Of a DNA stretch of 64,000 bases, positions 1-41,018 are shown piece by piece. A program made the translations under genes and the position numbers. Location: NCBI GenBank assembly GCA_963798485.1, contig CAWCTR010000021.1:64001-128000 (forward strand). Direction: 5' to 3'. Each line of letters opens with the position of its first letter. Position 1 is the stretch's first letter. The notes below the pieces were generated by a model. It worked only from the letters and a program-made list of their open reading frames with translations, was not told the origin of the DNA and searched no databases. The DNA comes from an uncultured delta proteobacterium. GTDB taxonomy: Bacteria > Desulfobacterota > Desulfomonilia > UBA1062.

Positions 1-6
1 CGGCAT
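1..6 (-). CDS. Probable start of a divergent gene running off the left edge
   Basis: Minus strand reads GGGGAGaagataacATGCCG: SD-like motif plus ATG at 6-4; only two codons visible. Confidence 0.35.
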
Positions 7-324
7 GTTATCTTCTCCCCTTGAACATTCTCTCAATAAGTGTTGCACAAGTGGTGCACTTTGTCAACTAAGTTTGCACATTAATATTTTAGAACCAACG
101 CCCTCGTCATTGACAACTTTGGTTAGCGGTTCATGAATATGCACATGAACTGCATGGTGGGTGTTCAGGTTTCATGAAGGCGAGATGGGCTAGGATGGAT
201 AGGAAAAATCGCTCCAGTTTTTGTATGTTGTAGAACGGGATCATGTAATGTATTGTTCAACCATTAGAATTTACAACTTAAGATCGACTTCTGAGATGAA
301 ATGATTATGGGGTAAGGAGTTCTC

Positions 325-1440: not shown

Positions 1441-1627
1441 ATCCGTCTGTCTGCACTGCCATTATCGACAGGTCTGGTGCAAGGCCATGAGCCGGTAAAC
1501 CACAAAATCATACAAAAATAATTATCCCGGAGTGCGGATTTATAAACCCAGGCGACAGGAGCCTTCCCAACGCCTAATCTTTGGAACAAAATTTAGAACT
1601 GAAATTATTTGAAAGGAGGTATTTATC

Positions 1628-12058: not shown

Positions 12059-12073
12059 TGGCATGCTACTTGC
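12059..12073 (+). promoter_or_regulatory. Sigma54 -24/-12 promoter of the permease-PII operon
   Basis: TGGCATGCTACTTGC (GG-N10-GC), 46 nt before ATG 12120. Confidence 0.8.
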
Positions 12074-12119
12074 CCTAGCTATTATCTATAATCGAGCTTG
12101 TGGAAAGGAGGTATTTACC

Positions 12120-14051: not shown

Positions 14052-14096
14052 GGTGATAATCCTCGGATTAAAATAATCAGACAAGGGAGATGCAAG

Positions 14097-14435
14097 ATGA
14101 AAAGGATTGAAGCGATTATTCGGCCGGACAAGGTGAGCGCAGTATTCAATGCATTGAAAAAATTAGGTCATCCCGGCGTGATGATCTCAGAGATTGAGGG
14201 CCATGGAAGCCAGGAAGGCATAAATATCCAGGTTCGCGGCAATACCTATAAAGTTGACTTGATCACCAAGGCCAGGGTTGAGGTGATCGTAAAAGAAAAT
14301 GAAATGGAACTGATCATCAAGGCAATCTGCGATGCGGCTTTCACCGGTAAGATAGGGGATGGGAAAATATTCATCCATCCAGTGGACGATGCCTTGAGGG
14401 TGCGTACCGGCGAACGGGGAGAAATAGCTGTCTAA
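14097..14435 (+). CDS. PII nitrogen regulatory protein (GlnB/GlnK family)
   Basis: MKRIEAIIRP, GHGSQEG, Tyr51, Lys58, [16 protein letters not shown]; 112 aa. Confidence 0.93.
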   Translation: MKRIEAIIRPDKVSAVFNALKKLGHPGVMISEIEGHGSQEGINIQVRGNTYKVDLITKARVEVIVKENEMELIIKAICDAAFTGKIGDGKIFIHPVDDALRVRTGERGEIAV

Positions 14436-14473
14436 CCTTACATCGAACGTTAAGATAATTATGCGGTTAAGGT

Positions 14474-16063: not shown

Positions 16064-16732
16064 TTACACCCGGTGGTCTTCACGGATGATGGTGCGGCAG
16101 CCTCCGGACAGGCTTGGACGCCAGTTCTTGGGCGGCCTGATCTCGTTGAGCCGGTCCAGCTGCCCAATATCTTTGAGCCGTTTGTAAATGAGCTGCCAGG
16201 CGCAGGGAAGGCTGGGGTTGACTTCGCACCGGTCTTCACGCGAGCCGCTGCACGGGCCGTTCATCATGTGCTTCGCGCAGCGGGTGACCGGGCAAATGCC
16301 GCCGTAAAGATGGAGCACACACGCGCCGCAGGCCGCACATTTTTCCGTCCAGATACCTCGTTCTTCCAGAATGCCGATGAAGGCGGTATCGAGGCCCGCG
16401 TAAACCGGTTTGTCTGCAAAACGTTCGGCCAGTGCCTGAACGCCGGCACCGCAGCCCAGGGACAGCACGGCGTCGACCTTCATGGCCGCCTCGGCGGCCT
16501 GTTCGAGGAAAACGTTGTCGCACTGGCGTTCTATGGTGAGTTCCTCGACGTCCAGGGGAAGATCATTCAATTTGGCCGCCATGCGTAGCGCCGAGGCGAT
16601 GATGCTGACTTCGCGCTGGCCGCCGGCGAGGCAGACCGTGACGCAGGTGCCGCAGCCGAGTACGAGCACCTTGCGGTGCTTTTCAACGATGGACAATAAG
16701 TCGGGAATGCTTTTTCTTTGAGCAACGATCAT
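16064..16732 (-). CDS. metV: MetV (methylene-THF reductase C-terminal/Zn-finger partner)
   Basis: GCGTCVTVC, RQCD, CGAGVQ, CAACGAC...GGICPVTRCAKHMMNGPCSG...CEV...CAW; start 16732 overlaps mvhD stop. Confidence 0.85.
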   Translation of the reverse strand: MIVAQRKSIPDLLSIVEKHRKVLVLGCGTCVTVCLAGGQREVSIIASALRMAAKLNDLPLDVEELTIERQCDNVFLEQAAEAAMKVDAVLSLGCGAGVQALAERFADKPVYAGLDTAFIGILEERGIWTEKCAACGACVLHLYGGICPVTRCAKHMMNGPCSGSREDRCEVNPSLPCAWQLIYKRLKDIGQLDRLNEIRPPKNWRPSLSGGCRTIIREDHRV

Positions 16733-17175
16733 GAGCGACACTCCTGTTTTAATTTGCCGGTGGATTGTATCGGGCTGGGGCCCAGTTTGCGGACCGTTTC
16801 CACCATGTCGATGATGATATCCGCCAGGGGCCGCGCCATGGCGGCGGAAACGTTGACCATGCGGAGGCGTTCCTTTTCCATACCGATCTCATCGAGCATG
16901 TCCCGGATGTAGTTTACCCGGCGTTTGGCGCAGAGGTTGCCTTCGATGAAATGACAGCCCCCTTCGAGACAGCCTGCCACCAGCACGCCGTCCGCGCCGT
17001 TTTCAAATGCCTTCATGAAGTATTCGGTTTCCAGCCGTCCCGTACAGGGGGTGCGGATGATGAGCACGTTTGGCGGGTACTGGATGCGCATGGACCCCGC
17101 CAGATCGGCCGAGGAATAGGCGCAGTAGTGGCAGCAGAAGGCCACGATCTTGGGTTCAAATATGTCGGATTTCAT
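16729..17175 (-). CDS. mvhD: MvhD/FlpD [2Fe-2S] subunit
   Basis: IVAFCCHYCAYSSADLAG, PCTGR, GADGV.VAGC..G.CHF.EGN, ERL; start MKSDIF at 17175. Confidence 0.9.
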   Translation of the reverse strand: MKSDIFEPKIVAFCCHYCAYSSADLAGSMRIQYPPNVLIIRTPCTGRLETEYFMKAFENGADGVLVAGCLEGGCHFIEGNLCAKRRVNYIRDMLDEIGMEKERLRMVNVSAAMARPLADIIIDMVETVRKLGPSPIQSTGKLKQECRS

Positions 17176-17186
17176 GGATTGAGCTT

Positions 17187-20100
17187 TTACCTCCCACCAA
17201 TTGCCGAGCAGGCCGTGATTGTACTGTCTTCCCGGTCTTCTCCGAGGTTGCCGGCGAACAGTTCCTTGATCATCACCACAAACTGGTCTGTCTCGAAATG
17301 ATGCAGCTCTATGGCGCAGGCAGGACATTCGGCCGCGCAGATGCCGCAGCCCATACACTTGGCTGCCTCGATCTGCCCCTTGCCGTCCTTGTTGCAGTAG
17401 GGCGCGGAATACGGGCAGACCGTTACGCAGGTCATGCAGGAGATGCACTTTTGCTGGTCCACGTATGAGATCTGGGCGCTGACGTCGAGATGCGTCTTGG
17501 ATAGCACCGTGGCCGCACGCGATGCTGCTGCGCGCGCCTGCGAAATGTTTTCGTCAATGAACTTAGGCGAATGGGCCATGCCGCAGAGGAAAACGCCCTC
17601 GGTCGTAAAATCCACCGGCCGCAGCTTCATGTGCGCTTCCACATAGAAACCGTCGGTGTTGAGCGGCACCTTGAGCATGTCGGATATGCGCTTGTTGTTC
17701 TTAAAGTCCACTTCCACGCCCGTGCTGAGCACGACATTGTCGGCTTCGATCGCGAGCGGTTCGGCGAAGTCCGGGCTCTTGAGCGTGACGACCAAACCGC
17801 CTTCTTCTTTCACCGTCGGCGGCGCCTCGGGCGTGTACCGGATAAAGACCACGCCGGCCTCGCGCGCCTGCTGATAGTAGATTTCCCGGAAACCGTAGGT
17901 CCTCACATCACGGTAGAGAACATATACATTGGCTTGGGGGTCCTCCTTTTTGATGGCCAGCGCGTTTTTAACGGCCATGGAGCAGCAGATGCGGCTGCAA
18001 TAGGGATGCTTTTCGTCGCGCGAACCGACGCACTGGATCATGACGATGTTCTGTCCCAGGGCAGGCCACGACTTCTCATGCAGCCGCTTCTCAAGTTCGA
18101 CCTGCGTCAGAACTTTCTCGGAGCGGCCGTATAGATATTCGCCGGTCCTGGCCGCCTGCGCGCCCGTGGCAACAATGATGGTGCCACCGGTGACCTCCTG
18201 AATTTTGCCACCCTGGTCAAACGACACGTGGAACTTTCCGATGTGGCCTTTGATGCCTGCGACCTCGGCCTGGAGATACGTCTTGATATGGGAATGGTTC
18301 CTGACCTGGTCGATGAGACCGGTGGCGAAGGCGGCGATGTCCGCTTGCTCCAAGGTCCGGTATATATCGTGCAGGGTACCTCCCAGACGATTAGCCTGTT
18401 CGATCAAGTGGACGTCAAACCCCTGGTCGGCGAGCGCCAGCGCGGCTGTCATGCCGGAGAGGCCTCCGCCGATGACGATGCCGGTTTGGTCCACCGTGAG
18501 CGTTCCGCCTTCTAACGGCAAGAGCCTGCGGGCCCGGGCGATTGACATCTTCACGAGCTCAGCCGCCTTAACGGTAGCAGGTTCCGGCTCGGTAGAATGC
18601 ACCCAGGAGCACTGGTCGCGGATGTTTGTCATTTCGAACAGATAAGGGTTCAGGCCTGCTTCGCGGAGCGTCTCGCGGAACAGAGGCTCGTGCGTCCGCG
18701 GGGTGCACGAGGCCACCACGATGCGATTGAGCCGGTGCTGATGGATCATGTCCTTGATGTTCGACAGGCTCGTGTCGGAACAGGTGAACATGGTGTGCGT
18801 CGCTAAAACCACATTCGGCTCATGTTCCACGCGCTTGACCACTTCCTCGACGTCCACCACCGACCCGATGTTCATGCCGCAGTGGCAGACAAACACACCG
18901 AGGCGCGGTTCTTCATCGGTGACATCGTGCTCGATGGGATAGCTCTTTTTGGTGACCAGCGAATTACGGGCCGGCGCGAGCAGTTCCATGGCCATGGACG
19001 CCGCGGCGCTGGCCTGGGTCACGGTCTCGGGAATGTCCTTAGGCTCCTGGAAGGCGCCTCCCACGAACACGCCGGGCCGGGAAGTGCACAACGGCTGGAG
19101 CCGGTCGGTGTCGCAGAAACCGAACTCGTTGAGCTTGATGTTCATACCGGCGGCCATCTCCGCCATGCTGTGCGGCGGCTCCATGCCCACGGACAACACG
19201 ACCAGGTCGAACTCCTTGTGCGAAAGCCCGCCGTTTTCGTCGAAATATGTAAGCTGAAGGTCCTTGCTGCCGGGCAGCTGGACGATCCGCGAGGGGATGC
19301 TCTTGATGTATTGGATGTTGTCCTTGGCCCTGGCGCGCTCGTAATACTGATCGAAATCCTTGCCGTGGGCGCGGATGTCCATGTAGAAAATCGTGGCATC
19401 CAGGCTCTCGACGTGGTCGCCCGTGACGAGCGCCTGCTTGGTGGCCATCATGCAGCAGATGGATGAGCAGTATTCGTTGTTGCACGCCTTGTCGCGCGAA
19501 CCCACGCATTGGATCCAGGCGATGCGCCGGGCCTCGCGCCTGTCCGACAGGCGGATCACATGCCCTTCAAACGGCCCTGCGGCGGACAGCATCCGTTCAT
19601 ACTGGACGGAGGTGACCACGTTGGGATAGCGGCCGTAGCCGAACTCACCTTTAAGCGATGCATCGAACTCGTCAAAGCCCGGGGTCAGGATGACCGAGCC
19701 AACTTCGAGGGTGATTGTCCGTTCTTGCATGGCGTGGTCAATGGCGTTCTGCTTGCAGGTATCGACGCACCGGTTGCATTCCGAGCACAGGGCGCAATTG
19801 AGACACCGCTCGGCCTCAGAAAGGGCCTGCTCTTCGGTGAGCCCTTTCTCAACCTCGTCGAAATTCCTTAGACGGATGGAGGGCGAGAGCTCTTCCGGGC
19901 GAGGACGTGATCTTTTCTCGACCTTGTCGAGTTCAGGCAGGAGTTCTTCGGGAAGAGGGCTTAAGCTTTCCTCAAACCGGCCGCCGAGCAGATCCGTGCC
20001 CTTCAGATACCTCTCGATGGACTCGGCCACCCGTTTACCCGCGGCCACGGCATCGATCACGGAAGCTGGACCGCTCGTATTGTCGCCGCCTGCAAAAATG

Positions 20101-21686
20101 CTCTCAATGGACGTCTGCCCGGTCACCGGATCGGCCTTGAAACAGCCGCGCTCGGTCTGGACGCTGATGTGACTCACGGTCTGCTCGTCCACCATCTGTC
20201 CGATGGCCACGATGATCTGGTCGGCATCGATGGTGGTGAGAGCGTTTTCGTCAAAGGCCGGGCTGAAGCGTTTTTTCTCGTCGAAGACCCGGGTGCAGCG
20301 TTTGAGCTCGATGCCGGTGACTTTTCCGTTGCCGAGGATGCGCTTTGGGCCCCAGCCGTTACGGATCTTGATGTTTTCCGCGAGGGTGGCCTCGATCTCC
20401 TCTTCGTAGGCGGGCATCTCGTGGGGTCCTTCGAGGCAGACCATCTCGACATTTCTTGCGCCCAGGCGTAGCGCGGTACGGGCCACGTCGATGGCCACGT
20501 TGCCGCCGCCGATGACCAGCACCCGTTCCTTCACCTCGGGTTTATTGGCCGAAGCCGCTTCTCTTAAGAATTCTACGCCGTGCAGGACGCCCTCGATGTC
20601 CTCGCCTTGAACGCCGAGTTTGCGGCTCTTCTGGGCGCCGGCCGAAATGAAGATGGCTGCATAATCATTGCGCAGCGTCTGGAAGGTGACGTCCTGGCCG
20701 ATGCGGCAGCCATAGATGAACCTGACGCCCTTGCGGCGGATGATTTCGATCTCGTGGTCGAGCACCTTCTTGGGCAGGCGATACTCTGGGATCCCGTATC
20801 GGAGCATGCCGCCGGCTGCGGGCATGGCTTCGTAAACCGTGACGGCAAACCCTGCGTCAGCAAGATCATTGGCTGCTGTAAGCCCGGCCGGGCCGCCACC
20901 GATGATCGCGACCTTCTTGGCATCGGGTGCGATTACCTTTTCCTCCGGCAGAGCCAGATCGCCCGCCGCGAGCATCTCCATTTCCCTGTCCGATGCGAAG
21001 CGCTTCAACAGCCGGATGGCGATAGGGGCGTCGGCACCCGCCCTCGTGCATTCACTCTCGCAGGGATGGGTGCAGATGCGGCCGCAGATGGCCGAAAGCG
21101 GGTTCCTCTGACGGATGAGCTCTACCGCCTTGACATATTCCTTCTGCTTGATGAGCTGGACGTAGCCCTGGACGTTCACCCTGGCCGGGCATGTCATTTT
21201 GCAGGGAGAATGGCCGTTTTTAAGGATGCCGAAAATGTTCGGGGTGGCCTGGGCGTAAAGCTTTGCAATGCCCTTGCGGGTTCCCAGGCAGCGGTTGAAC
21301 TCGTCCGGGATGTCTACGGGGCAGACTAAAGTGCATTCGCTGCATCCGGTGCATTTGTCCTCGTACACAAACCGCGGATACCGCTTGACTCTTGCCCTGA
21401 AACGGCCCGGCCCGCCTTCGAGGCCCACCAGTTCGGAAAGCGTCAGAATCTCTATATTCAGGTTCCGCGCGCATTCGACGAGCTTGGGCGAGACGATGCA
21501 GGTGGCGCAGTCGCCGGTCGGGAAGGTCTTGTCCAGATGCGCCATCATACCCCCGATGGCTGCGTCGCGCTCGACGAGATACACCTTGAAGCCACTGTTT
21601 GCCAGATCGAGCGATGCCTGTACGCCGGCAATGCCGCCGCCCTGCACCAGCACCGCGCCGATTTTCTTGTCGTCCGATCTACTCAT
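17187..21686 (-). CDS. hdrA: Large HdrA-like flavoprotein (HdrL type) with an inserted GltD/NfnB-like NAD(P)H oxidoreductase module
   Basis: GGGIAG...LDKTFPT.DC..C; inserted CP..VNVQGY...CGRICTHPCE..C.R, GGGPAG, GGMLRYGIPEYRLP, GGGNVA.D.AR; two QCVGSRD...YCS..CC motifs; GVFVCHCG; second GGGLSG; C-terminal 2x4Fe-4S. Confidence 0.9.
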   Translation of the reverse strand: MSRSDDKKIGAVLVQGGGIAGVQASLDLANSGFKVYLVERDAAIGGMMAHLDKTFPTGDCATCIVSPKLVECARNLNIEILTLSELVGLEGGPGRFRARVKRYPRFVYEDKCTGCSECTLVCPVDIPDEFNRCLGTRKGIAKLYAQATPNIFGILKNGHSPCKMTCPARVNVQGYVQLIKQKEYVKAVELIRQRNPLSAICGRICTHPCESECTRAGADAPIAIRLLKRFASDREMEMLAAGDLALPEEKVIAPDAKKVAIIGGGPAGLTAANDLADAGFAVTVYEAMPAAGGMLRYGIPEYRLPKKVLDHEIEIIRRKGVRFIYGCRIGQDVTFQTLRNDYAAIFISAGAQKSRKLGVQGEDIEGVLHGVEFLREAASANKPEVKERVLVIGGGNVAIDVARTALRLGARNVEMVCLEGPHEMPAYEEEIEATLAENIKIRNGWGPKRILGNGKVTGIELKRCTRVFDEKKRFSPAFDENALTTIDADQIIVAIGQMVDEQTVSHISVQTERGCFKADPVTGQTSIESIFAGGDNTSGPASVIDAVAAGKRVAESIERYLKGTDLLGGRFEESLSPLPEELLPELDKVEKRSRPRPEELSPSIRLRNFDEVEKGLTEEQALSEAERCLNCALCSECNRCVDTCKQNAIDHAMQERTITLEVGSVILTPGFDEFDASLKGEFGYGRYPNVVTSVQYERMLSAAGPFEGHVIRLSDRREARRIAWIQCVGSRDKACNNEYCSSICCMMATKQALVTGDHVESLDATIFYMDIRAHGKDFDQYYERARAKDNIQYIKSIPSRIVQLPGSKDLQLTYFDENGGLSHKEFDLVVLSVGMEPPHSMAEMAAGMNIKLNEFGFCDTDRLQPLCTSRPGVFVGGAFQEPKDIPETVTQASAAASMAMELLAPARNSLVTKKSYPIEHDVTDEEPRLGVFVCHCGMNIGSVVDVEEVVKRVEHEPNVVLATHTMFTCSDTSLSNIKDMIHQHRLNRIVVASCTPRTHEPLFRETLREAGLNPYLFEMTNIRDQCSWVHSTEPEPATVKAAELVKMSIARARRLLPLEGGTLTVDQTGIVIGGGLSGMTAALALADQGFDVHLIEQANRLGGTLHDIYRTLEQADIAAFATGLIDQVRNHSHIKTYLQAEVAGIKGHIGKFHVSFDQGGKIQEVTGGTIIVATGAQAARTGEYLYGRSEKVLTQVELEKRLHEKSWPALGQNIVMIQCVGSRDEKHPYCSRICCSMAVKNALAIKKEDPQANVYVLYRDVRTYGFREIYYQQAREAGVVFIRYTPEAPPTVKEEGGLVVTLKSPDFAEPLAIEADNVVLSTGVEVDFKNNKRISDMLKVPLNTDGFYVEAHMKLRPVDFTTEGVFLCGMAHSPKFIDENISQARAAASRAATVLSKTHLDVSAQISYVDQQKCISCMTCVTVCPYSAPYCNKDGKGQIEAAKCMGCGICAAECPACAIELHHFETDQFVVMIKELFAGNLGEDREDSTITACSAIGGR

Positions 21687-22557
21687 GGCTGTTTACTTCC
21701 ATTTTATTTAAGACGTTTTCAGCGGGGACCATCAGCTTTTCAAACCCGAGCTCGCTCGCGTCAAGTCCCAGGCAAAGCCCGAGGAGCTGGGTGATGTAAA
21801 TCACCGGCATACGGTAGTTCCTGCCCATCTCTTTGTTGATGTCCTGCTGCCGCACATCGAGGTTGATCTGGCACATGGGGCAGCTGACCGCGATGCACTC
21901 CGCGCCCACCTGGACGGCCATGTCGATAATGGACTCGGTGAGCCTGAGCACCACGTCGGTCCGTGACAGCGACAAACTGCCGCCGCAGCAATCGACCTTG
22001 CAGGGCCATTCGAGGCTGAGGCCGCCCATAGCGGTCACCAGACGGTCGAGCGACTTCGGATTTTCCGCATCATCGAACCTGAGAATCTCCGGCGGCCGGA
22101 CCAGAAGGCAGCCGTAGTAGCAGGCAACCTTGAGGCCGTTAAGCGTTCTTTTGAGGGACTTGGTGATGGTCGGCAGGCCGACATCTTCGAGGAGCACCTC
22201 AAGGAGGTGGCGGACCTTGACGGAGCCGTCGTAATCCCTATCGAGCGCGTCACGTACATCCCTGCGGACCTCGGCGTGGGTGGAAATCTCGTGGTTGGCC
22301 ACCTTCATCCTATTGTAGCAGGCGGCACAGTTGACGACCATGTCCAGGTTCATGTCCTGGACCTTGGTCAGGTTGGCGGCGGGCAGTGCAACGGCGAGCA
22401 GGCGGTCGGTCTGGTGGCCGGCGGTGGCGCCGCAGCAGGTCCAGCCTTTGGGTTCCTCGAAATCGAGCTTAAGCGCCCGTGCGACCGCATACGTGGACTG
22501 GTTCATGTCGCGGGCCGTGGATTCTGCCGAGCATCCGGGATAGTAGGCGTATTTCAT
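21679..22557 (-). CDS. hdrB: Heterodisulfide reductase subunit B-like
   Basis: YYPGC, WTCCGA, CAACY, YYGCLL.RP, DCCGG, CPMCQ.NLD, PV.YITQL. Confidence 0.92.
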   Translation of the reverse strand: MKYAYYPGCSAESTARDMNQSTYAVARALKLDFEEPKGWTCCGATAGHQTDRLLAVALPAANLTKVQDMNLDMVVNCAACYNRMKVANHEISTHAEVRRDVRDALDRDYDGSVKVRHLLEVLLEDVGLPTITKSLKRTLNGLKVACYYGCLLVRPPEILRFDDAENPKSLDRLVTAMGGLSLEWPCKVDCCGGSLSLSRTDVVLRLTESIIDMAVQVGAECIAVSCPMCQINLDVRQQDINKEMGRNYRMPVIYITQLLGLCLGLDASELGFEKLMVPAENVLNKMEVNSHE

Positions 22558-23120
22558 GCTCGGGTTCCTCGTTTTTGTTTTGCGTTCTTGAAAATGCGTC
22601 TCACGGTTTTCCTGTCGCCTTCCATGGGAGGCAGCAGCGCAATTTTTCCCTTCTTCAGCATGGCCGGGAATTTTTCCGTATCTTCCATCAGTTTGCCCGT
22701 GCCGATCTTGTAGGCTGTGATCATGGCGATATCGTAGGGGCGGCCGAAGATCTCGACCGTCTTCAAGAATGCGCGGTTGAACAGCGGCATATCGCCTTGA
22801 GGTTTCGGCGCGCCCCGATCTAAGGCCAGAGAGCGCAGCGAGTCCATGACAGAAGCCACGTCAATACCCATGGGGCAGCGGGCCGAGCAGGTTTCGCACG
22901 AGGCGCACAGCCAGATGAGGTCGCACTCGAGCAGTTCCTCACCGGCGCTGAGGTGCAGCATCCGCATGATTTCCGACGGCCTGGTTGTGGCCAGCTTTGC
23001 CACCGGACAGCCGCTCGAGCATTTCTTGCACTGTAAACAGACGCTCAGGTTCACGCCGGCCAGCTTCTCGACGGCATTCTTCAGACCATGGCCTATCCTT
23101 GCTTTTTTGATGGTTAGCAC
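22554..23120 (-). CDS. hdrC: Heterodisulfide reductase subunit C-like
   Basis: CLQCKKCSSGCP and WLCASCETCSARCP. Confidence 0.9.
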   Translation of the reverse strand: MLTIKKARIGHGLKNAVEKLAGVNLSVCLQCKKCSSGCPVAKLATTRPSEIMRMLHLSAGEELLECDLIWLCASCETCSARCPMGIDVASVMDSLRSLALDRGAPKPQGDMPLFNRAFLKTVEIFGRPYDIAMITAYKIGTGKLMEDTEKFPAMLKKGKIALLPPMEGDRKTVRRIFKNAKQKRGTRA

Positions 23121-23139
23121 GATAATGTTCTCCAGCTAT

Positions 23140-25797
23140 TCATGCCAGTTCTTCAACTGTTTCTTCAGCCCGGACATCGTCGGTGTCCTCCAGGACAATA
23201 TCCTTGATGTTGCCGGGGACAACCTTGCGATACACCCGGCACGGTTTGAGCTGCTTGCCGTTCACGGTTAAAAGTTCCTTGACGGTTATCCCGAAATGTT
23301 TCTGGTTTTCCTCCAAAAACGGCAGGATCAGCTCCCAGTCGGCGTCGGTCACCTTGGCAAACTGGCCGCTGTTCAACTGCTGGTCCACCAGGGTCTTTCC
23401 CGGGTCACGGACAAAAATGGCGCCGCCCGAAGCCAGCGAAAACAGGTTGCTGCCCGGGTAAGGATCAACAAGCGGAACAGGTTTCCCTTCGTCGTCGAGC
23501 TTGACGCCGTTCAGGATCACGAAGCCGCCGCCGTTAAGCGGGTCGCCGGCCATGAAGGACTCGGCGAGAAAGTCGAGGCAGGTGCCGTTGATGACTACCT
23601 TGGGCCGTCCCACGGAGTTTATGAGCGGTCGTCCCGCTGCGTTGCCGAGCACATAGACCTCGCCGCCCTTGGCGCCGTACATGAAGGTCTGGCCCACGTC
23701 GCCATGAATGACCATTTTCCCCTGCTTGACGATCTGACCCAACTGGTCCTGGGCGTTGCCGTGCACCGTGATCGTCAGCCCGTCAATGCCCGAACCGAGA
23801 TAGTCGCCGCTGCTGCCGTACACGTCGATGAGAACACCCTCGGTTTCCGGACCGAGGCCGCAGCCGGTGTACCGCTGGCCGATGCAATTGAAGCAGATGA
23901 AACGGCGCCAGCCTAACATAAAAGCGTCAACCAGCAGCGCGGCGTCACAGTCATCTCCTTCTGGTGGAAACTGGGCAGCGTCGATCACCAGCGTGGTTTC
24001 CATGCCTTGCGGCCCTCGAAGGTGTCCGCGCGACATGAAATCAACCAGGCGATACGCGCCCTTTGCGGCATCCTTGTCGCTTATTTTGGGGAGGCTCGAG
24101 AAAAGCCGGCTCAGCGCGGTGCGCACGATGTGGAGCACATGGCTGCGTCTCTTCGCGCCGGTCGAGTAACGCCGGTCATTGAGCAGCGTCAGGACTTCTA
24201 TCGACGTGGCCGTCTTGGAAGGGTCCTTCGCCTGATTGATGATCTGCCGGCACGCCAGATCGATCTCGTCAAACGTCGATTCGGGTATGAGGTCGCGTAT
24301 CATTTCAAAAATCGTGACGCTGTTGCCGGGCACAAATCTCTCGCTGATTATTGTCTGTATAGTCTCCCTCGATTCGGAGGATACTGAAAATTCCTTGGAA
24401 AAATCGAACGACTCGGTGCCGCCAGGCATAGCGACCTGCGTACCGAATTTGTCCGTGCAAGTGATCCGGATTTTGCCGGCCGGATCTTTTTTCAGGTTGA
24501 AAATGAACGCCCCGCCGTCGTCATAGCTGCCACCGCGCGCGTTCCAGTAGCGGTCCGCAACGGGGCAGATCCGTTTATCATCCTTTGACAGGCTCATGAG
24601 TGTGGCATCAATGGCCTGTTTTTCCGAGGCGATCAGCCCCACCTGGACAACGCCATCGGTAAAGGCGAACACTTGGGGTCGCAGCATGGCGGTGTCGGTG
24701 ATGCCCATCAACTGGAACTGCCGCTGGCGGGCGAGGCTGCGGGCTATGATGAAGAACCAGGGGCCGTCGGGCGAGCCGTGCATGTGGGTGGCCTGGATGG
24801 CCCGGTAAACCTTCTGCTTTTCAAGGCCGAGCCGGTCGAAGTCAAGTTCCGTGGTCGGCGCCAGGGCTTCGATGATGTATTCCAGCGGGTAGTGGTAGGT
24901 CCTGCTGAGCAGGTCGAACAGCTGCGCGGACACTTCCGTATCGGTGAGAAACTGGGGATAGATATGGCGCTGTTTGAGATATTCGGTAACCGAATGGTAG
25001 TTGGCAAAGTCGCCGTTGTGCACCAGCGCCATGTCAATGGCAGCGAACGGATGGGCGCCGCCGGGGTGCCAGACACGACCCTTGGTGGGGAAACGCTGGT
25101 GGGCGATCCAAACGTGGGCGCACAGGTCCTCGATCTTGTAATACTTCACGATGGCCTCGGCATAGCCGACCACCTTGAGGATCATGATGTCCCTGCCGTG
25201 CGAGAGCACGAAGGCGCGTTTTTCGCCCAGGGACGCGTAATACTTCTGATTGAGGCTGAAGCTGTTCTGGCTGACGAATTCGTCCTCCGCCGCATCGCTC
25301 TCGAGCGCCTGCAGATTGTTCTTTTCGATGAACTCGCCCAGCACTTCCGGCTTGACGCGGACAAAGTATCGGCAAACATCCGGGGGGAGCACCTCGAGGC
25401 CCGGCACGGTCTTCCAATCCTCCATCTTGTCGAACTGCGCGGAGGCGGCAACGTCGAAGAAAGGCTTGATGAACTCCTCCTCGATTTCCGGACGCAAAGA
25501 AGTGTCGATGAAGGCTACATTCAGCAGGTAATAGTTGTCGAGCACCTCTCTGCTGACGCCGAGTTGCTCCGGGACGAGCCCCACCGCGGCGATTCCGCCT
25601 CCCTTGCCGTTCCCACGGTTGTGCATCTGGCGCGACGGCTCGTAAATGTGCCGGCCCGCCACCGGCTCGCTGCAGCAGAAACCGACCACGCCGCAGCCGC
25701 CTTCCTCCGCCTCCTTCCGAAGGATCGGGGGTAACCTGAGACTCTCAGCGAGCCTTTTTCTTGAACCGGTCAGCTTCTGGATCAATTCAGTGTTCAT
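23140..25797 (-). CDS. Glutamate synthase-like subunit: class II glutamine amidotransferase plus GXGXG domain
   Basis: EGG|CGVVG (Ntn Cys after ~34-aa propeptide), NRGNGKGGG, HQRFPT, HPF, HNGD, TDTE, DGP, LRP; C-terminal GXGXG beta-helix (GDYLGSG, HGNAQD, GDVG, AESFMAG). Confidence 0.85.
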   Translation of the reverse strand: MNTELIQKLTGSRKRLAESLRLPPILRKEAEEGGCGVVGFCCSEPVAGRHIYEPSRQMHNRGNGKGGGIAAVGLVPEQLGVSREVLDNYYLLNVAFIDTSLRPEIEEEFIKPFFDVAASAQFDKMEDWKTVPGLEVLPPDVCRYFVRVKPEVLGEFIEKNNLQALESDAAEDEFVSQNSFSLNQKYYASLGEKRAFVLSHGRDIMILKVVGYAEAIVKYYKIEDLCAHVWIAHQRFPTKGRVWHPGGAHPFAAIDMALVHNGDFANYHSVTEYLKQRHIYPQFLTDTEVSAQLFDLLSRTYHYPLEYIIEALAPTTELDFDRLGLEKQKVYRAIQATHMHGSPDGPWFFIIARSLARQRQFQLMGITDTAMLRPQVFAFTDGVVQVGLIASEKQAIDATLMSLSKDDKRICPVADRYWNARGGSYDDGGAFIFNLKKDPAGKIRITCTDKFGTQVAMPGGTESFDFSKEFSVSSESRETIQTIISERFVPGNSVTIFEMIRDLIPESTFDEIDLACRQIINQAKDPSKTATSIEVLTLLNDRRYSTGAKRRSHVLHIVRTALSRLFSSLPKISDKDAAKGAYRLVDFMSRGHLRGPQGMETTLVIDAAQFPPEGDDCDAALLVDAFMLGWRRFICFNCIGQRYTGCGLGPETEGVLIDVYGSSGDYLGSGIDGLTITVHGNAQDQLGQIVKQGKMVIHGDVGQTFMYGAKGGEVYVLGNAAGRPLINSVGRPKVVINGTCLDFLAESFMAGDPLNGGGFVILNGVKLDDEGKPVPLVDPYPGSNLFSLASGGAIFVRDPGKTLVDQQLNSGQFAKVTDADWELILPFLEENQKHFGITVKELLTVNGKQLKPCRVYRKVVPGNIKDIVLEDTDDVRAEETVEELA

Positions 25798-27362
25798 TTT
25801 TCTGTCGTTCCCTCGTTGGTGTAATCCAAATGTATCATGAGGTCGGTGCGTCCGCGCAGCTCGCTCACGCTCTTGAGGCCGAGGCGCTTAAGAATTTTGA
25901 TCAGCGTTTTCTGCCAGGCGCTGTAAAGGTTGATGAGACGCTGGGCGCCCCATTCAGTAGTCATTTTGGCGGCAAGCACGGGGTCGGTCGTGGCGATGCC
26001 ACGCGGGCAGCCCCGCCCGCTCTCGCAGCGGCTGCAACGAACACAGCCCAGCGCCACCATTTCCGCGGTCCCGATGACCACCCCGTCCGCGCCCAAGGCG
26101 ATGGCCTTGGCGATGTCGTGGGCCGTGCGGATCCCGCCGCTGGCGATCAGCGTCACCTTGTCGCGGACGCCCTCGTCTGTAAGGAAATTGTGCACCTTGC
26201 CGATGGCGTATTCGATGGGCATGGCGATGTTCTTCTTGGCGATGTCCGGCGCCGCGCCGGTCCCGCCATAACCGCCGTCGATGTGGACGATGTGCGTGCC
26301 GGCGGAATAGCTCCCCACAGCCACCATGTCCACGTCCGTCGGGGTTGAAACCTTCGTCGAGATCAAGGCGCGCCGGTTCACGTGCTTGATCCATTCAATG
26401 TGCTTGGCGTGGTCTTCGATGGAATAGACGCTGTGGAACGGGAACGGGGAGAACAGGGAGATGCCGAGCACCGCCTCGCGCATGCGGGCCACGACGACGG
26501 TGTTTTTGTCGCCGAGCAGATGGCCGCCCAGGCCGGGCTTGGCGCCCTGGGCATACTTGAATTCCACGATGGGTACCCGCTGGATGGTTTCCTCGCGCAC
26601 GCCGAACAGGCCTGTGGCGACCTGTGTGATGACGTGGTCGTCATACGGTCGCATGCGTTCCATGTAGCCGCCCTCTCCTGTGCAGGTAAACGTGTTGAAC
26701 GCCACGCACGCCCGGGCCTTTGAAAGCTGGGTTACGTTGCTCACCGAGCCGAACGACATTCCGCCGCCGTACCAGGGAACGTCAATTTTGATTTCGGGTC
26801 GGCCGTCGCCGCGCTTGTTCAGCGAGATGCTCGTGTCGATCTCGCTCTCGTCGAGCAGGGCGGGCGGTTTGTCCGGGAATTTGAACCGGAGCCGGTCAAA
26901 GCCGCCGCCGGAATTGCCGCATTCGTAGTTGTAATCGTAGGCCTCATCCGGCACATCTCCGGTCTCGGCCATCTTCCATGTGGCCAAGATCAGATCCGCG
27001 GTCCAGCGATAATCGCCGAGCGCGGTGAACATGGGATTTTCCCGGATCGACAAGGCCCCTTGAGGGCAATGGGCCACGCAATACTTATCCGTCTTTTCGC
27101 AGGAAGGCCCGATGCACAGGTGATGCTCGGGCTCGCCGAAATATTTAAACCCGGGTTTGTGGACGTGGACGCCGTAGGAGCAGACCTCCACGCACTTGCC
27201 GCAACGTTTGCAATCCAAACTGCGGTGGACGATGTACTTGGCAATTTCGTTGCGATAGCGGGACGGCGCTGGTTTGACGAGGCGCTGCACCTGCTCCTGC
27301 GGCACGCGCGTCTTCAGCGTGTTCTCAGGCAGAATGTCCTCAAGACGGCTTTCTTTTTCCAT
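25794..27362 (-). CDS. FMN-binding glutamate synthase subunit with N-terminal Fe-S domain (motifs intact)
   Basis: GGMSFGS, TGEGG, QVATGLFG, EFKYAQGAKPGLGGHL, DGGYGGTGA, ASGGIR, C..C..C.....CP.GIAT.D; start uncertain (ATG 27362 chosen). Confidence 0.87.
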   Translation of the reverse strand: MEKESRLEDILPENTLKTRVPQEQVQRLVKPAPSRYRNEIAKYIVHRSLDCKRCGKCVEVCSYGVHVHKPGFKYFGEPEHHLCIGPSCEKTDKYCVAHCPQGALSIRENPMFTALGDYRWTADLILATWKMAETGDVPDEAYDYNYECGNSGGGFDRLRFKFPDKPPALLDESEIDTSISLNKRGDGRPEIKIDVPWYGGGMSFGSVSNVTQLSKARACVAFNTFTCTGEGGYMERMRPYDDHVITQVATGLFGVREETIQRVPIVEFKYAQGAKPGLGGHLLGDKNTVVVARMREAVLGISLFSPFPFHSVYSIEDHAKHIEWIKHVNRRALISTKVSTPTDVDMVAVGSYSAGTHIVHIDGGYGGTGAAPDIAKKNIAMPIEYAIGKVHNFLTDEGVRDKVTLIASGGIRTAHDIAKAIALGADGVVIGTAEMVALGCVRCSRCESGRGCPRGIATTDPVLAAKMTTEWGAQRLINLYSAWQKTLIKILKRLGLKSVSELRGRTDLMIHLDYTNEGTTEK

Positions 27363-28734
27363 AGAGCCTGCCAAAGGTCTCCTCCTCGAGGTTCTCGAAA
27401 AACATGGCGCGGCCGACCTCGCCCCGCAGGCGACGGGCCTCGCGCATGCCCATGGCACCCATCAGTTCGATCAACTGGTCGTGCCATGCCGCGATCAGGT
27501 TCGTCATCCGGCCCACACCGTAGTTGAAATCGATTTCCTGAAGCCTGGCCGGACACGGCGACCCGGGCTCGCAACTGTTACACAGATGACATTCAAGCGC
27601 GATCATAAGCGGCAGGTTGATGGTAACCAGGTCGGCACCGCAGATGATGGCCTTGGCCATGTGCTCCGGCAGCGCGATACCGCCTCCGGCCATGAGCGTG
27701 ATTTCATCCCGGATGCCCCTCTCGATGAGCGCGGTATGAATCTGACGGATCATGTCCTTTATAAACCGCGGCTTTTTCGCCAAGAGTTCATTGCCGTCGG
27801 CATCGGAAACGAGGTGGATCACTTCAATCTCTTCCAGAGCGGCCAGATCTATGGCGCGGCCGATTCCCGCATCGGTCAGTTCCATCCGGATGGCTACGAC
27901 AATTTCCGGGTGGATTTTTTTGATTTCCCTGATGCGCTCCGCCACGGCGGGGCTGTCGGCGATTTCCACCAGGCGGGTTTTTTTCAGCAACGCATCCGGC
28001 ACGCTCGGGCTATCCGGGCCAAGATAAAACGCGATGTTCTCCAGGTGGGCGTCACTGGACGGCCGGTATTTTGAGTCCATAAGGGCGATCAGGCCGGTGT
28101 CGGCGGCGGTCTGTTCGATGATCGGGTCAAGCTTCGGCAGCGTGTGCGCTGGCGAACTCAAATCAAGGATCAACGGCATCGGAAGCGAGACCAGCGGCGG
28201 CAAGGCCGTTGATTTGTTTCCATTCACCACCAGAAACGGCGGCTTGCGGCCGATGTCGACCGAAGTGCTGATGTATTCCCGCCCGTGAATGCCGTCGCGG
28301 GTCGGGCGGACAATCTCCGACATGTCCGTCCACATGGAATCGAAGCCCTGGCCGGAAAACGGCCCCCGGTAGCCTGCGCCGGAAACCGGAATTTTTGCGG
28401 TTTCGGCCTGAAGCCATGTCGTTTTGATGATATCGGGTTTCCAATAACTGTTCCCGAGCTTTTCATACTCCGGGTTTACTGAAAGGCGCAAGATGCCTTT
28501 GGTGCAGTCCTGCACGCAGGAAAAACAACCCATGCAGTCAAAAAACAATGCCTCTACATCGCTTAAGTTGCGGATGTATTCCGCCTCCTGTCTGTAGCGG
28601 TCATAGACACAGGCCTTTTTAACGCAGTTATGACACCGGGCGCAGTCTTCCCGCCAGTCCACCACTCCATGTTTGCCTATGCGCGGCCGCAACGGCGGAA
28701 CCGGCTGGGTCTTGATGTGATATTTCTCCGGCAT
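27340..28734 (-). CDS. Degenerate FMN-type glutamate synthase paralogue with Fe-S motifs
   Basis: CARCHNC..C, CMGCFSC...C, AGGGI...AKAIICGAD...CHLCNSC..CP...MG...LRG; lacks MSFG, TGEGG and QGAKPG. Confidence 0.75.
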   Translation of the reverse strand: MPEKYHIKTQPVPPLRPRIGKHGVVDWREDCARCHNCVKKACVYDRYRQEAEYIRNLSDVEALFFDCMGCFSCVQDCTKGILRLSVNPEYEKLGNSYWKPDIIKTTWLQAETAKIPVSGAGYRGPFSGQGFDSMWTDMSEIVRPTRDGIHGREYISTSVDIGRKPPFLVVNGNKSTALPPLVSLPMPLILDLSSPAHTLPKLDPIIEQTAADTGLIALMDSKYRPSSDAHLENIAFYLGPDSPSVPDALLKKTRLVEIADSPAVAERIREIKKIHPEIVVAIRMELTDAGIGRAIDLAALEEIEVIHLVSDADGNELLAKKPRFIKDMIRQIHTALIERGIRDEITLMAGGGIALPEHMAKAIICGADLVTINLPLMIALECHLCNSCEPGSPCPARLQEIDFNYGVGRMTNLIAAWHDQLIELMGAMGMREARRLRGEVGRAMFFENLEEETFGRLYGKRKPS

Positions 28735-28749
28735 AATCTCTCCAAGCGC

Positions 28750-29649
28750 CTACAGTCCGGAAGCGGCGACCAATTCGGGCACAATTGCTTCCTTGCCGCC
28801 CGAAAGGATGTGTATTCCGCGCAAACCAGTAAGCGCCTTGAGCTGCTTGATGGTTTCAGCGCAAATAGCCAAGCCTTCCTTCTTACCGGCATCGCCTGCT
28901 TTTTCCAGCCGTTCAATGACTTCGTCCGGAATACGGAATTCGGCATACGTATTGCGGAGTTTTTGGGCTTCCGTTACACTTTCCAAGGGATATACACCGG
29001 CCAAGATGGCGGCCTTTTTGGTGATGCCTTCCTTGCGGGCGGCGTCGAGCCAAAGGCCAAAGGACTGGATGTCAAACACCGCATGAGTCTGAATGAACCT
29101 GGCGCCGGCTTCGACTTTTTTACCCAGCCTGAACAGGTTAAGTTCCAGCGGTTTCATGAATGGATTTACCACCGCACCCACCAGCATCGAAAACTGCCCG
29201 TCTATGCCGGTTCCGTCGGCCAGCACGCCGTTTTCGGTCATCCGGTTGGCCAACTCGATTAACTGAATGGAATCGATATCATATACATTAACTGATTCCG
29301 GACATCCGATCAGTGTCTGATGATAACCGGACATGCAGAGCACATTCTTGATTCCCAGGCTGGCGGCCCCCAGCAGATCGGACTGTAACGCGATGCGATT
29401 CCGGTCGCGGGTGACCATTTGAAGGACCGGTTCAACACCCAATCTCATCGCTGCCGCGGATGCGGCCATCGACGACAGCGCCACGCCGTGTGAATTGTCA
29501 GCCATGCCCACGGCCACCGGTTTGCCGCCAAAATACTTCAAAGCCGCTTCAACGGTTGCGCCTGATGCAGTGGCGCCGGGCGCACACTCAGCGGTGACGA
29601 TAAAATCTCCCGTCTCGATTTTTTTTGCGAGTTTGCTGTCGACTTTCAT
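28750..29649 (-). CDS. metF: Methylenetetrahydrofolate reductase MetF-like (atypical)
   Basis: VTAE, DN, QMVTRDRNRIALQSDLLGA, KKVEAGARFIQT, GIHI; SGYH in place of the usual GD motif. Confidence 0.82.
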   Translation of the reverse strand: MKVDSKLAKKIETGDFIVTAECAPGATASGATVEAALKYFGGKPVAVGMADNSHGVALSSMAASAAAMRLGVEPVLQMVTRDRNRIALQSDLLGAASLGIKNVLCMSGYHQTLIGCPESVNVYDIDSIQLIELANRMTENGVLADGTGIDGQFSMLVGAVVNPFMKPLELNLFRLGKKVEAGARFIQTHAVFDIQSFGLWLDAARKEGITKKAAILAGVYPLESVTEAQKLRNTYAEFRIPDEVIERLEKAGDAGKKEGLAICAETIKQLKALTGLRGIHILSGGKEAIVPELVAASGL

Positions 29650-29663
29650 GCTACCGTGCTCTC

Positions 29664-30086
29664 CTATTTGTTGGCGGCGCCGCTTCGAGCATACGTCGGG
29701 GGTAGAGTTCTTAGGCGTTCAATGAACTGTTTGATTTCGCCGAGGACTTCTCCGGCGTCGGGTTTCCCGCACTCAAAAACGGCCATCCGGCCCGCGGCCA
29801 CGCCGATTTCATCCAGCAGCGCTTCAACGGCCTCGGCGCGTTTGCGCGCCCGCAGATTGCCCTCGAAGTGGCGACACTCGTTCTTTTTGCAGGTCACAAT
29901 CGCCACACCGTCCGCACCTGTTTCAAAGGATTTAATCAAATAAGGGATATCCACCTTTCCGGAACAGGGCAGACTGATGATCTTGATCGTATCGCCATCG
30001 TGTATAGTGCATAAACCCGAAAACTGGCTTGCTTCAAGATTGTTTGAGCAATAAAAAATATAAGTTTTCAACGCCTGATTGTTCAT
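29664..30086 (-). CDS. Second, divergent MvhD-like [2Fe-2S] protein
   Basis: YCSN, LPCSGKV, FETGADGV..V.C....C.H.EGN.RA. Confidence 0.8.
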   Translation of the reverse strand: MNNQALKTYIFYCSNNLEASQFSGLCTIHDGDTIKIISLPCSGKVDIPYLIKSFETGADGVAIVTCKKNECRHFEGNLRARKRAEAVEALLDEIGVAAGRMAVFECGKPDAGEVLGEIKQFIERLRTLPPTYARSGAANK

Positions 30087-30157
30087 AAATCTTGTTTCCT
30101 TTGGTGAAAAAAATCAATCAAGCCAGTTGGGCCGTTCACACTCTTCACCGGCGCAAG

Positions 30158-30172
30158 GCAGGCCATATGCCT
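30158..30172 (-). promoter_or_regulatory. Candidate sigma54 promoter of the mvhD-metF-glt-hdr-metV operon
   Basis: Minus strand AGGCATATGGCCTGC (GG-N10-GC), ~70 nt before ATG 30086; imperfect consensus. Confidence 0.45.
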
Positions 30173-30270
30173 TTCAAGGTCCCAGCACCATCGTGGTTGA
30201 TCGTCGCCTGCATAAAACATGAGACATATAAAAGAACATGACAGCGAAGTCCATAACTTTCTTAATAACA

Positions 30271-30315
30271 TGGGTATACCCAACATTTTATTACGATTAT
30301 TACGAATTATTACGG
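30271..30315. promoter_or_regulatory. Candidate operator elements upstream of the Hdr/Met/Glt operon
   Basis: Perfect palindrome TGGGTATACCCA (30271-30282) and three tandem TTATTACG(A/G) units (30288, 30297, 30307). Confidence 0.45.
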
Positions 30316-30352
30316 ATCTCACCCCCTGCTCGTAGCAGTAAAGAAAGCTGGC

Positions 30353-40960: not shown

Positions 40961-41018
40961 AAAAGAAAACCAGACGAGATACTCATGGAATTATAGGAAA
41001 TCACTTTAGGTATTCACA

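Follow-up and report, generated by a model that had tools for sequence, protein, structure and literature searches.

Glutamate synthase (GltS, also called GOGAT) is the main point at which nitrogen enters biomass, and it draws its electrons from NAD(P)H by way of GltD, from ferredoxin or, as proposed, from F420. In GltBD and the ferredoxin-dependent enzyme, compared here through structures from A. brasilense (1ea0/2vdc/6s6s), B. subtilis (7mfm) and Synechocystis (1ofd/1ofe), an N-terminal nucleophile (Ntn) amidotransferase with a propeptide and a catalytic Cys1, a flavin mononucleotide (FMN) domain with an Fe–S cluster beside it and a GXGXG domain share one large subunit. In archaeal-type enzymes the amidotransferase (GATase), FMN and GXGXG parts are encoded by separate genes, and the module that feeds in electrons is swapped by gene association, an F420/FrhB-like form having been proposed (PMC9012536, available text). 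Here we describe a ten-gene operon in which split glutamate synthase (glt) genes are joined to hdrABC, mvhD and metVF genes; it lies in a 64,000-nt stretch (the window) of an uncultured delta proteobacterium of the Desulfomonilia (assembly GCA_963798485.1, contig CAWCTR010000021.1, positions 64,001–128,000).

On the electron-transfer side, the closest described system is the MetFV–HdrABC–MvhD methylene-tetrahydrofolate (methylene-THF) reductase of Moorella thermoacetica (Mock et al. 2014, as cited in PMC6085437 and PMC11094777), which oxidises NADH and for which a second acceptor has not been identified (PMC6085437, available text). A second relative is HdrL of Desulfobacterium autotrophicum HRM2, a fusion of HdrA with a glutamate-synthase small subunit that contains an NADH site and is followed by mvhD; its loci lie beside dsr, fdh or other genes, and the available portion of the source mentions no association with glt or metFV (PMC2702500).

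The window operon shares parts with each of these systems. Relative to GltBD and ferredoxin-GltS, the amidotransferase with its propeptide and Cys1, the FMN domain and the GXGXG domain are all present, and a putative Fe–S cluster lies next to the FMN, but the large subunit is split into a gene for domains 1 and 4 (hereafter G) and an FMN-domain gene with an added 2x[4Fe-4S] domain (M); an extra, dead twin of M (M') is present, a four-Cys motif stands where those enzymes have the three Cys of a [3Fe-4S] cluster, there is no free GltD, the GltD-type module being carried within an HdrA fusion (HdrA-L), and HdrABC, two MvhD and MetFV are encoded in the same operon. The split genes recall the archaeal type, yet GATase and GXGXG are fused and the input would be HdrA-L/HdrBC/MvhD/MetFV rather than GltD alone or FrhB. 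While all six protein families of the Moorella set are represented, the glt and hdr genes stand between metF and metV, MetF lacks Asp120 and Gln183 equivalents, HdrA includes both an insert of NfnB/GltD type and a further HdrA unit, and there are a second MvhD and three Glt genes. HdrA-L fits the definition of HdrL (HdrA plus a GltD-like module, with mvhD overlapping the 3′ end of its gene), and its residues 159–640 match NfnB/NfnA-type chains; unlike in NfnAB/NfnSL, this module is embedded in HdrA, and the operon encodes no NfnA/PyrK-like partner.

In the full-text literature (supplementary tables, which possibly list such clusters, lay outside the search) we found no description of glt genes joined to hdr/metFV. 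What appears new here is the contrast in the MetF triad, the model of the first MvhD-like protein (MvhD') on M', the M'–M fusions, a core without MetVF and the history of horizontal transfer in the genus. We propose, and give an even chance to, a single complex that would convert glutamine and 2-oxoglutarate to glutamate with NAD(P)H electrons received through HdrA-L, possibly bifurcating to ferredoxin.

Gene content and catalytic motifs of the operon

All ten genes lie on the minus strand, from 30086 to 16064, in the order MvhD'–MetF–M'–M–G–HdrC–HdrB–HdrA-L–MvhD–MetV (open reading frame (ORF) list, Pfam and NCBIfam; Table 1), M' and M being GltS FMN-subunit-like genes and G the gene for GATase plus GXGXG. 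With start codons set from homologue alignments and from reading of the sequence, the successive junctions measure +14, +15, -23, -4, +19, -4, -8, -13 and -13 nt; the last would be ~0 if MetV starts at ATG 16732, a possible start given that its homologue alignments begin at residues 2–4. Within the block, promoter- and terminator-like sites are no more frequent than in shuffled sequences. The initial annotation had listed ten tightly packed genes in this order, with metF and metV 12 kb apart and bracketing the glt and hdr genes; the same ORFs, domains and order were recovered, and the coordinates bear out the bracketing.

Table 1. Window coordinates of the operon genes, of their upstream region and of the second glutamate synthase.
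Feature	Coordinates	Strand	Description
MvhD'	29664..30086	-	140 aa; small [2Fe-2S]-type MvhD/FlpD protein; Pfam FlpD 90.7 bits
MetF-like flavoprotein	28750..29649	-	299 aa; Pfam MTHFR 92.2 bits, whole profile
M'	27340..28734	-	464 aa; Fer4 and last third of Glu_synthase profile, 50.8 bits
M	25794..27362	-	522 aa from ATG 27362; Fer4 and Glu_synthase (PF01645), 303.3 bits
G	23140..25797	-	885 aa; Pfam GATase_6 and GXGXG
HdrC-like subunit	22554..23120	-	188 aa; 2x[4Fe-4S]; Pfam Fer4_17 and Fer4_8
HdrB-like subunit	21679..22557	-	292 aa; Pfam CCG, two stretches
HdrA-L	17187..21686	-	1499 aa; HdrA matches in four stretches
MvhD	16729..17175	-	148 aa; canonical HdrA-associated [2Fe-2S] subunit; Pfam FlpD 161.9 bits; ATG 17175
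MetV	16064..16741	-	225 aa from GTG; Cys-rich MetF partner; Pfam DUF5981 (MTHFR C-terminal) 125.2 bits
Intergenic region, asnB to first operon gene	30087..30352	-	upstream region
Second GOGAT	38232-43355		split archaeal type; 376-aa subunit, Fer4-FMN subunit (194 bits), GXGXG-GltD fusion

The product of G consists of a 34-residue propeptide, a class-II Ntn amidotransferase domain, a helical insert (~residues 470–570) that is unique to G in the comparison with GltS, and a GXGXG beta-helix (Pfam GXGXG, 56.8 bits, residues 638–810). The Pfam GATase_6 match is weak (29.8 bits). Cys35, the equivalent of the catalytic Cys1, sits within an invariant EEGGCGVxGF motif, and all 76 non-gap rows have it. 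Neither of the amidotransferase motifs, R235-x-P237-T238 and H260-N261-G262, varies among 51 rows. An AlphaFold2 model of G (predicted local distance difference test, pLDDT, 82.5) aligns with GltS 7mfm_G over 587 residues (VIA-align Z 25.5; root-mean-square deviation 3.4 A), with Foldseek in agreement, and its residues 35..871 span 1..1507 of Synechocystis GltS 1ofe_A such that residue 35 falls on GltS residue 1; residues 601–867 match FwdC (Z 14.2) and, in the Z 25.5 alignment, the GltS C-terminus. As modelled, G corresponds to GltS domains 1 and 4, arranged relative to each other as in the native enzyme, and its Cys35 falls on the catalytic Cys1.

The FMN-binding synthase (beta/alpha)8 domain, with its GltS signatures, is found in M, which aligns to A. 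brasilense GltB residues 857–1169 (phmmer, 182.5 bits) and combines a 2x[4Fe-4S] ferredoxin domain, the FMN barrel and a C-x2-C-x2-C-x5-CP cluster. Its GltS motifs are at least 90% conserved among 56 rows (GGMSFGS, CTGEGG, QVATGLFGV, KYAQGAKPGLGGHL, SPFPFHSVYSIEDH, GGTGAAP and SGGIR...ALGADG), and all twelve of its cluster cysteines are invariant in 56 rows; these include Cys 440, 443, 446 and 452 at the place of the GltS [3Fe-4S] cluster, where they are putative ligands of a cluster. Judged by these motifs, G and M together hold the full catalytic equipment of a glutamate synthase, and we predict that they are active as one.

On the contrary, M' matches only positions 260–368 of the 369 in the Glu_synthase profile, lacks the GMSFGS, GEGG, QVATG and GGTGAAP motifs along with the 45-residue AQGAKPG...SIED block, and has an invariant block of its own (residues 116–164). 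It retains the eight ferredoxin-type cysteines and the C-terminal Cys cluster, so that on its residues M' is a catalytically dead Fe–S twin (paralogue) of M. In many other organisms the two are fused: among proteins of 813–2320 aa there were 980 matches at E<=1e-10, and the 120 listed are ~940–1070 aa long, with M' covered to 84–100% (all but one to at least 97%) and a Glu_synthase domain following it.

The electron-transfer subunits are similarly conserved. HdrA-L (NCBIfam HdrA2, 960.8 bits over four stretches) is an HdrA interrupted at ~residues 157–663 by a GltD/NfnB-like module for NAD(P)H, flavin adenine dinucleotide (FAD) and 2x[4Fe-4S], after which HdrA resumes and is followed by another HdrA-like unit that ends in a ferredoxin domain. 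Against PDB chains it matches HdrA 5odc_A (576 bits) and, over the Nfn-like residues given above, NfnA-, NfnB- and GltD-type chains (4ylf_B, 258 bits; 9n5u_A, 348 bits). The module gives the operon's sole NCBIfam match above cut-off (PRK12771, 552 bits vs 516) and is kept in all 46 full-length HdrA-L homologues aligned; the earlier remark that HdrA carries a GltD-like NAD(P)H module in place of a separate gltD is supported by this match and by the NfnB/GltD structures. HdrC (NCBIfam CoB_CoM_SS_C, 61.3 bits) and HdrB (CoB_CoM_SS_B, 197.4 bits; cut-off 345) both score under the cut-offs of their families. Across the subunits the Fe–S ligand cysteines are invariant—eight in HdrC (56 rows), Cys9, 38, 63 and 68 in MvhD (56 rows), Cys13, 41, 66 and 71 in MvhD' (34 rows), thirteen in MetV (55 rows) and eleven, plus Cys365, in M' (58 rows)—with the exceptions of Cys388 of M' (84%) and of Cys9, 41, 42, 77, 80, 150, 190, 191, 226 and 229 of HdrB (98–100%, 53 rows). 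The MetV gene is the only one found in the genome.

Could the Glt part be some other amidotransferase-coupled reductive aminase, e.g., one like N-methylglutamate synthase? Split GltB-like subunits occur in that enzyme as well, the weak GATase_6 match and unique helical insert of G would suit another amine or 2-oxo acid, and the operon usually shares its genome with another GOGAT. M, however, keeps the GltS synthase-domain motifs and outscores the second GOGAT of the window on both PRK11750 (208.6 vs 101.1 bits) and Pfam (303 vs 194 bits), the recurrent neighbours are glutamine synthetase (GS), Amt and PII, and two carrier metagenome-assembled genomes (labelled Smithella and Dehalococcoidales; completeness not given) yield no further GltS FMN gene that scores above 25 bits. 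We therefore regard such an aminase as distinctly unlikely. The genes of N-methylglutamate synthase (MgsABC) associate with those for gamma-glutamylmethylamide synthetase (GMAS) and N-methylglutamate dehydrogenase; no genes like these are among the window ORFs of at least 150 aa scanned, and that particular enzyme, left with no contextual support, was rejected.

Loss of folate-binding residues in MetF

The MetF of the operon belongs to the MetV-partnered MTHFR subfamily (NCBIfam PRK08645, 157.8 bits; cut-off 453), and a canonical MetF (301 bits) is encoded on another contig of the genome. Alignment with that canonical MetF and with human and E. coli MTHFR placed the Glu/Asp/Gln triad unambiguously. 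The site of the catalytic Glu28, FxFEFFPP, reads TAEC in the window MetF, the Asp120 site LRGD reads MSGY and the Gln183 site ITQ reads QTH, i.e., Glu/Tyr/His takes the place of Glu28/Asp120/Gln183, and the set of catalytic and pterin-binding residues that a Moorella-type MetF would have is incomplete. In the E. coli enzyme, Asp120 forms a bidentate bond to pterin N3 and the exocyclic amine, and 0.3% of kcat remains in D120N; Gln183 binds N8 and N1, and Km rises >250-fold in Q183A/E (PMC11094777, available text).

This replacement follows the architecture of the cluster. The full E/D/Q triad is present in 22 of 22 Hdr-less clusters and in three "mixed" loci, and in only 2 of 46 Hdr-containing clusters; since kin are not independent, these counts overstate the number of evolutionary events. 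Among the 46 Hdr-containing MetF, the Asp position holds Y in 30, D in four, H in four, F in three, A in two, and L, R and N in one each. In a tree of G (FastTree with SH-like supports and a midpoint root, alternative topologies not compared), a single clade of 49 rows (support 100) is characterised by the aromatic/His state, and another Hdr-containing clade, of 10 rows, by D, A, L or N. Locus L102 (4900–22043) contains a Glt-linked MvhD–MetV–MetF–M'–M–G block followed directly by a Moorella-like hdrC–hdrB–hdrA–mvhD–metV–metF set, and both of its MetF copies, including the one beside hdrCBA–mvhD–metV, keep E/D/Q. As the Moorella-like copy is intact, loss of the triad goes with the combination of Glt and Hdr and not with Hdr as such.

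Outside the triad, the window MetF is conserved (TRDRNRIA.QSD, DN and G.HQ are kept). Given this conservation and the invariant cysteines of its partner MetV, residue patterns make it more likely that MetF is a retained flavin/Fe–S relay than that it is a folate enzyme. The "MetF" of such operons should not, then, be counted as evidence for the methyl branch of the Wood–Ljungdahl pathway.

The initial annotation had coupled the operon to C1-folate redox, which the loss of the folate-binding residues makes doubtful for the window operon. The corresponding alternative—that methyl-THF serves as donor, or methylene-THF as second acceptor, at MetF during glutamate synthesis or oxidation—draws its support from the Hdr-less clusters (D-V-F-M'-M-G and D-M'-M-G-V-F, where D is MvhD, V MetV and F MetF). 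These keep the triad without exception and have no NAD(P)H module within their loci, so that folate may have been the ancestral redox partner, and from a CH2/CH3-THF potential of ~ -200 mV we estimate that methyl-THF could drive GOGAT. In the sister family, 14 of 14 loci are V-F-M'-M-G, with MvhD directly upstream in 12 and a UbiE-type methyltransferase downstream in 10; nothing else recurs, and the 14 loci contain neither an NAD(P)H module nor methyl-transfer genes. The window MetF, however, has Tyr/His at the two positions where mutation cripples E. coli MetF (PMC11094777, available text), and 44 of the 46 Hdr-containing clusters are without the full triad. For the window operon, we hold folate coupling at MetF to be improbable.

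Synteny, history and a modelled link between Glt and MvhD'

A scan of one genome per species returned at least 566 related stretches, and 80 related loci were kept for architecture. In 34 of these, all ten genes occur in the window order; six are cyclically permuted (G-C-B-A-D-V-D'-F-M', where C, B and A stand for the Hdr subunits), one is without HdrCB, four are D-V-F-M'-M-G, five are D-M'-M-G-V-F, one is D-V-F-M'-M-G followed by a Moorella-like C-B-A-D-V-F, and 29, L096, L099 and L106 among them, are partial, most being truncated at contig ends. The ten-gene loci come from genomes with ten phylum labels (Verrucomicrobiota, Planctomycetota, Thermodesulfobacteriota, Chloroflexota, Bacteroidota, Ignavibacteriota, Spirochaetota, Myxococcota, Acidobacteriota and Armatimonadota), and many of the carriers are peat and wetland anaerobes; metagenome-assembled genomes labelled Smithella, Syntrophus, Desulfosudis oleivorans and Anaeromyxobacter are among the carriers. 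The first reading of the locus would have failed had glt and hdr/met not been syntenic elsewhere; they are, and the block is more than a chance neighbourhood.

Closer to the window genome, the distribution is patchy. Full-length G occurs in three of 14 other genomes of the genus (four of 15 with G000), in one of 10 other genomes sampled from the family and in 16 of 16 genomes of the sister family. In the three other same-genus carriers (G002, G003 and G006) the ten genes and their order are unchanged, with protein identities of 72–95%; the operons of G002 and G003 have 70 nt of upstream sequence in common with the window in other genomic contexts, and that of G006 has none. The guanine-plus-cytosine (GC) content is 0.56–0.61 within the operon and ~0.49–0.51 in its flanks, and the window G nests in a Verrucomicrobiota clade (support 97–100) with 84% identity to a Verrucomicrobiota copy. 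The housekeeping protein CarB, by comparison, reaches at most 66% identity to the genomes returned and 62% to Verrucomicrobiota, close relatives possibly lying outside the lists. Because the operon is GC-rich, nested among Verrucomicrobiota copies and patchy in the genus, it was probably acquired horizontally, and sequence comparison indicates that the block has moved between phyla as a unit. In a fifth genome of the genus (L029, G007:C7, 8704–14234), a decayed M'-M-G with several stops and frame changes lies beside the same asnB–glnD, in the position that the intact operon occupies in the window, and the 2.5 kb between it and asnB hold ORF fragments only.

A physical link between the Glt and electron-transfer parts, as the initial annotation had supposed, is favoured by structure prediction. 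With M' and MvhD' each supplied as an alignment, the modelled complex has a median score of 0.71 (runs of 0.71, 0.73 and 0.36) against 0.00 for the best of three controls, its runs share at least 63% of contacts, and the partner has a pLDDT of 76 or more. Among the calibration pairs, 58 of 80 solved complexes and two of 110 mismatched pairs attained the mark, figures that are approximate here because our own alignments were used. In the model, the N-terminal ferredoxin domain of M' (residues 23–29, 51–63 and 83–89) is in contact with loops 35–58 and 72–82 of MvhD', which surround the cluster cysteines of the latter. The model supports binding of MvhD' to M', and gene order hints at the same link, in that an MvhD gene heads the Glt block and directly precedes M' in L096 and L099, two D-M'-M-G loci with no MetVF nearby.

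These observations bear on whether the operon simply co-transcribes two separate enzymes, a Moorella-type MetFV–HdrABC–MvhD and an independent ferredoxin-dependent split GltS. All six Moorella-type subunits are encoded, the genome carries the Wood–Ljungdahl markers ACS and FTHFS, and L096 and L099, together with L106 (M'-M-G), show that the Glt core can exist by itself, away from MetVF and Hdr. Two unconnected enzymes would not, however, be expected to leave eight genes between metF and metV in an interleaving conserved in 34 of 80 loci, nor to lose the MetF Asp and Gln exactly where Hdr and Glt are combined while a canonical MetF is encoded elsewhere in the genome; MvhD' is, moreover, modelled on M', and the whole block moves together between phyla. 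We thus judge separate enzymes to be unlikely.

The upstream region offers little on regulation. The proximal 70 nt are common to same-genus copies (95.7 and 93.9% identity over 66–70 nt in L011 and L012; blastn), with no similarity beyond them. The best sigma-54-like site, AGGCATATGGCCTGCC, ends 71 nt before the start codon, out of reach of the conserved 70-nt leader; it agrees with the consensus at 7 of 11 positions, a score reached by 263 of 1200 shuffles, and a sigma-54 promoter was accordingly rejected for the window operon. Scores of at least 9 occur in six of 60 loci vs 20 of 1200 shuffles, and a few relatives (L031–L034, L055 and L056) may have such a site where the window has not. The asnB–operon intergenic region also holds a perfect 12-bp palindrome, TGGGTATACCCA (30271–30282), with three tandem CGTAATAAT-like words just upstream of it; this region (30271–30314) may be a candidate regulator site and is not conserved among operon copies from the same genus.

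Proposed electron path and nitrogen context

In the single complex that we propose, G would hydrolyse glutamine at Cys35, freed by removal of the propeptide, and ammonia would pass to M, whose FMN would reduce 2-iminoglutarate to glutamate. M', with Fe–S clusters only, would act as adaptor and wire, with MvhD' docked on its ferredoxin domain. The NAD(P)H site of HdrA-L is the only recognisable substrate-level point of electron entry, and for that reason we propose that NAD(P)H electrons enter at the GltD/NfnB-like module and run from HdrA-L through MvhD, HdrBC, MetV/MetF, MvhD' and M' to the FMN of M and on to 2-iminoglutarate, MetF serving as a flavin relay and not as a methylene-THF reductase. 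The core of such a system would be MvhD–M'–M–G, an Fe–S-wired split glutamate synthase to which MetVF, and then HdrCBA-L with a second MvhD, would have been added.

The NAD(P)H-driven GOGAT reaction is strongly exergonic (~ -48 kJ/mol, an estimate from standard values), and the Nfn module carries a bifurcating FAD. With this much free energy available, the HdrA/NfnB flavin could split the electron pair and co-reduce ferredoxin: NAD(P)H would be oxidised at the HdrA-L module, one branch running downhill to 2-iminoglutarate at M and the other uphill onto ferredoxin. The fuller combination—a bifurcating GltS that passes NAD(P)H electrons to both 2-iminoglutarate and ferredoxin, a MetF that is an ex-folate relay and Hdr-less ancestors that were possibly driven by methyl-THF—we put forward tentatively, as possible rather than probable.

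The direction of electron flow could also be the reverse, i.e., catabolic, with glutamate oxidised and its electrons passed to NAD(P)+ and/or confurcated with ferredoxin. Hdr- and Nfn-type modules are reversible in principle, and an amino-acid permease–PII fusion is encoded nearby. An invariant glutaminase site (Cys35 and its motifs) would, however, be purposeless in glutamate oxidation, and hydrolysis of glutamine makes the overall reaction effectively irreversible; we consider the catabolic direction highly improbable.

Several observations weigh against a single NAD(P)H-fed glutamate synthase complex. HdrBC keeps all of its noncubane-cluster cysteines, a pattern that hints at a catalytic thiol/disulfide substrate outside the proposed path. 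MetF keeps its Glu28 equivalent and is clearly under purifying selection, and it may still bind a pterin-like or other substrate. One of the three MvhD'–M' runs scored low, and the model score may partly reflect memory of MvhD on the ferredoxin domain of HdrA. Neither an M'–MvhD nor an M'–MetF fusion is among the 120 long homologues listed, all of which are M'–M. Nitrogen genes, sought with the window proteins as probes, flank only 18 of the 83 loci for which 4 kb or more of flank is available. Finally, another GltS FMN gene is present in eight of the 10 other carrier genomes tested, and the operon is thus not needed there as sole GOGAT; this finding, together with the second GOGAT of the window, agrees with the earlier suggestion of a specialised role and fits an operon that is accessory in most carriers.

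As to that second GOGAT, the initial annotation was correct that one lies at 38–43 kb but called it conventional, and it is itself a split, archaeal-type enzyme. The product of its first gene (38232–39362) begins with Met-Cys, matches nothing in Pfam or NCBIfam and shows a weak alignment to the G amidotransferase motifs (E 6e-4); its sequence points to a very divergent GATase-like subunit. In a complete Chloroflexia chromosome that carries the operon (L077), the only other Glu_synthase-domain gene (G047:C1:1426983-1427989) matches over different frames and may be broken.

Both glutamate synthases of the window belong to a glutamine/nitrogen island, which runs from a permease–PII fusion, PII and a sigma-54/GAF activator through the operon to AsnB, a GlnD-like pair, Amt, a second sigma-54/GAF activator, the split GOGAT, GlnA, CarA, a GlmS-like protein, CarB and PyrG. 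When flanking ORFs of the 80 loci were clustered in an unbiased way, the most recurrent families were GS (10), Amt (9), the sigma-54/GAF activator (6) and PII (5), and no theme other than nitrogen recurred. A link to nitrogen fixation was rejected, as no NifD/K-family match was found in the window genome, which is 97.5% complete.

Several neighbours are unusual in themselves. At 12039–16012 a permease with a C-terminal PII domain (670 aa), PII (14097–14435) and the activator (14474–16012) share one orientation and run towards the 3′ end of the operon. Two overlapping minus-strand ORFs at 32100–34594 are jointly GlnD-like, one with uridylyltransferase and HD domains (483 aa) and the other with ACT (362 aa); a split gene, a frameshift or an error of assembly could each account for the pair. 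Between carA and carB, 46041–49790 encodes a 1249-aa GlmS-like protein with a SIS domain, whose NCBIfam GlmS match (229 bits, under cut-off) covers residues 324–922 and leaves ~300 extra residues at each end.

If the proposed complex is real, a GltS wired through HdrABC, MvhD and MetFV would be a fourth way of powering glutamate synthesis, and the bacterial HdrABC and MetFV modules, which are poorly understood and in Moorella still lack their second acceptor, would gain a physiological partner. Were the complex to bifurcate, this would be the first energy conservation coupled to nitrogen assimilation, by which energy-starved anaerobes would recover part of the free energy that assimilation releases. 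The operon suggests that anaerobes have a means of powering nitrogen assimilation that has not been described.

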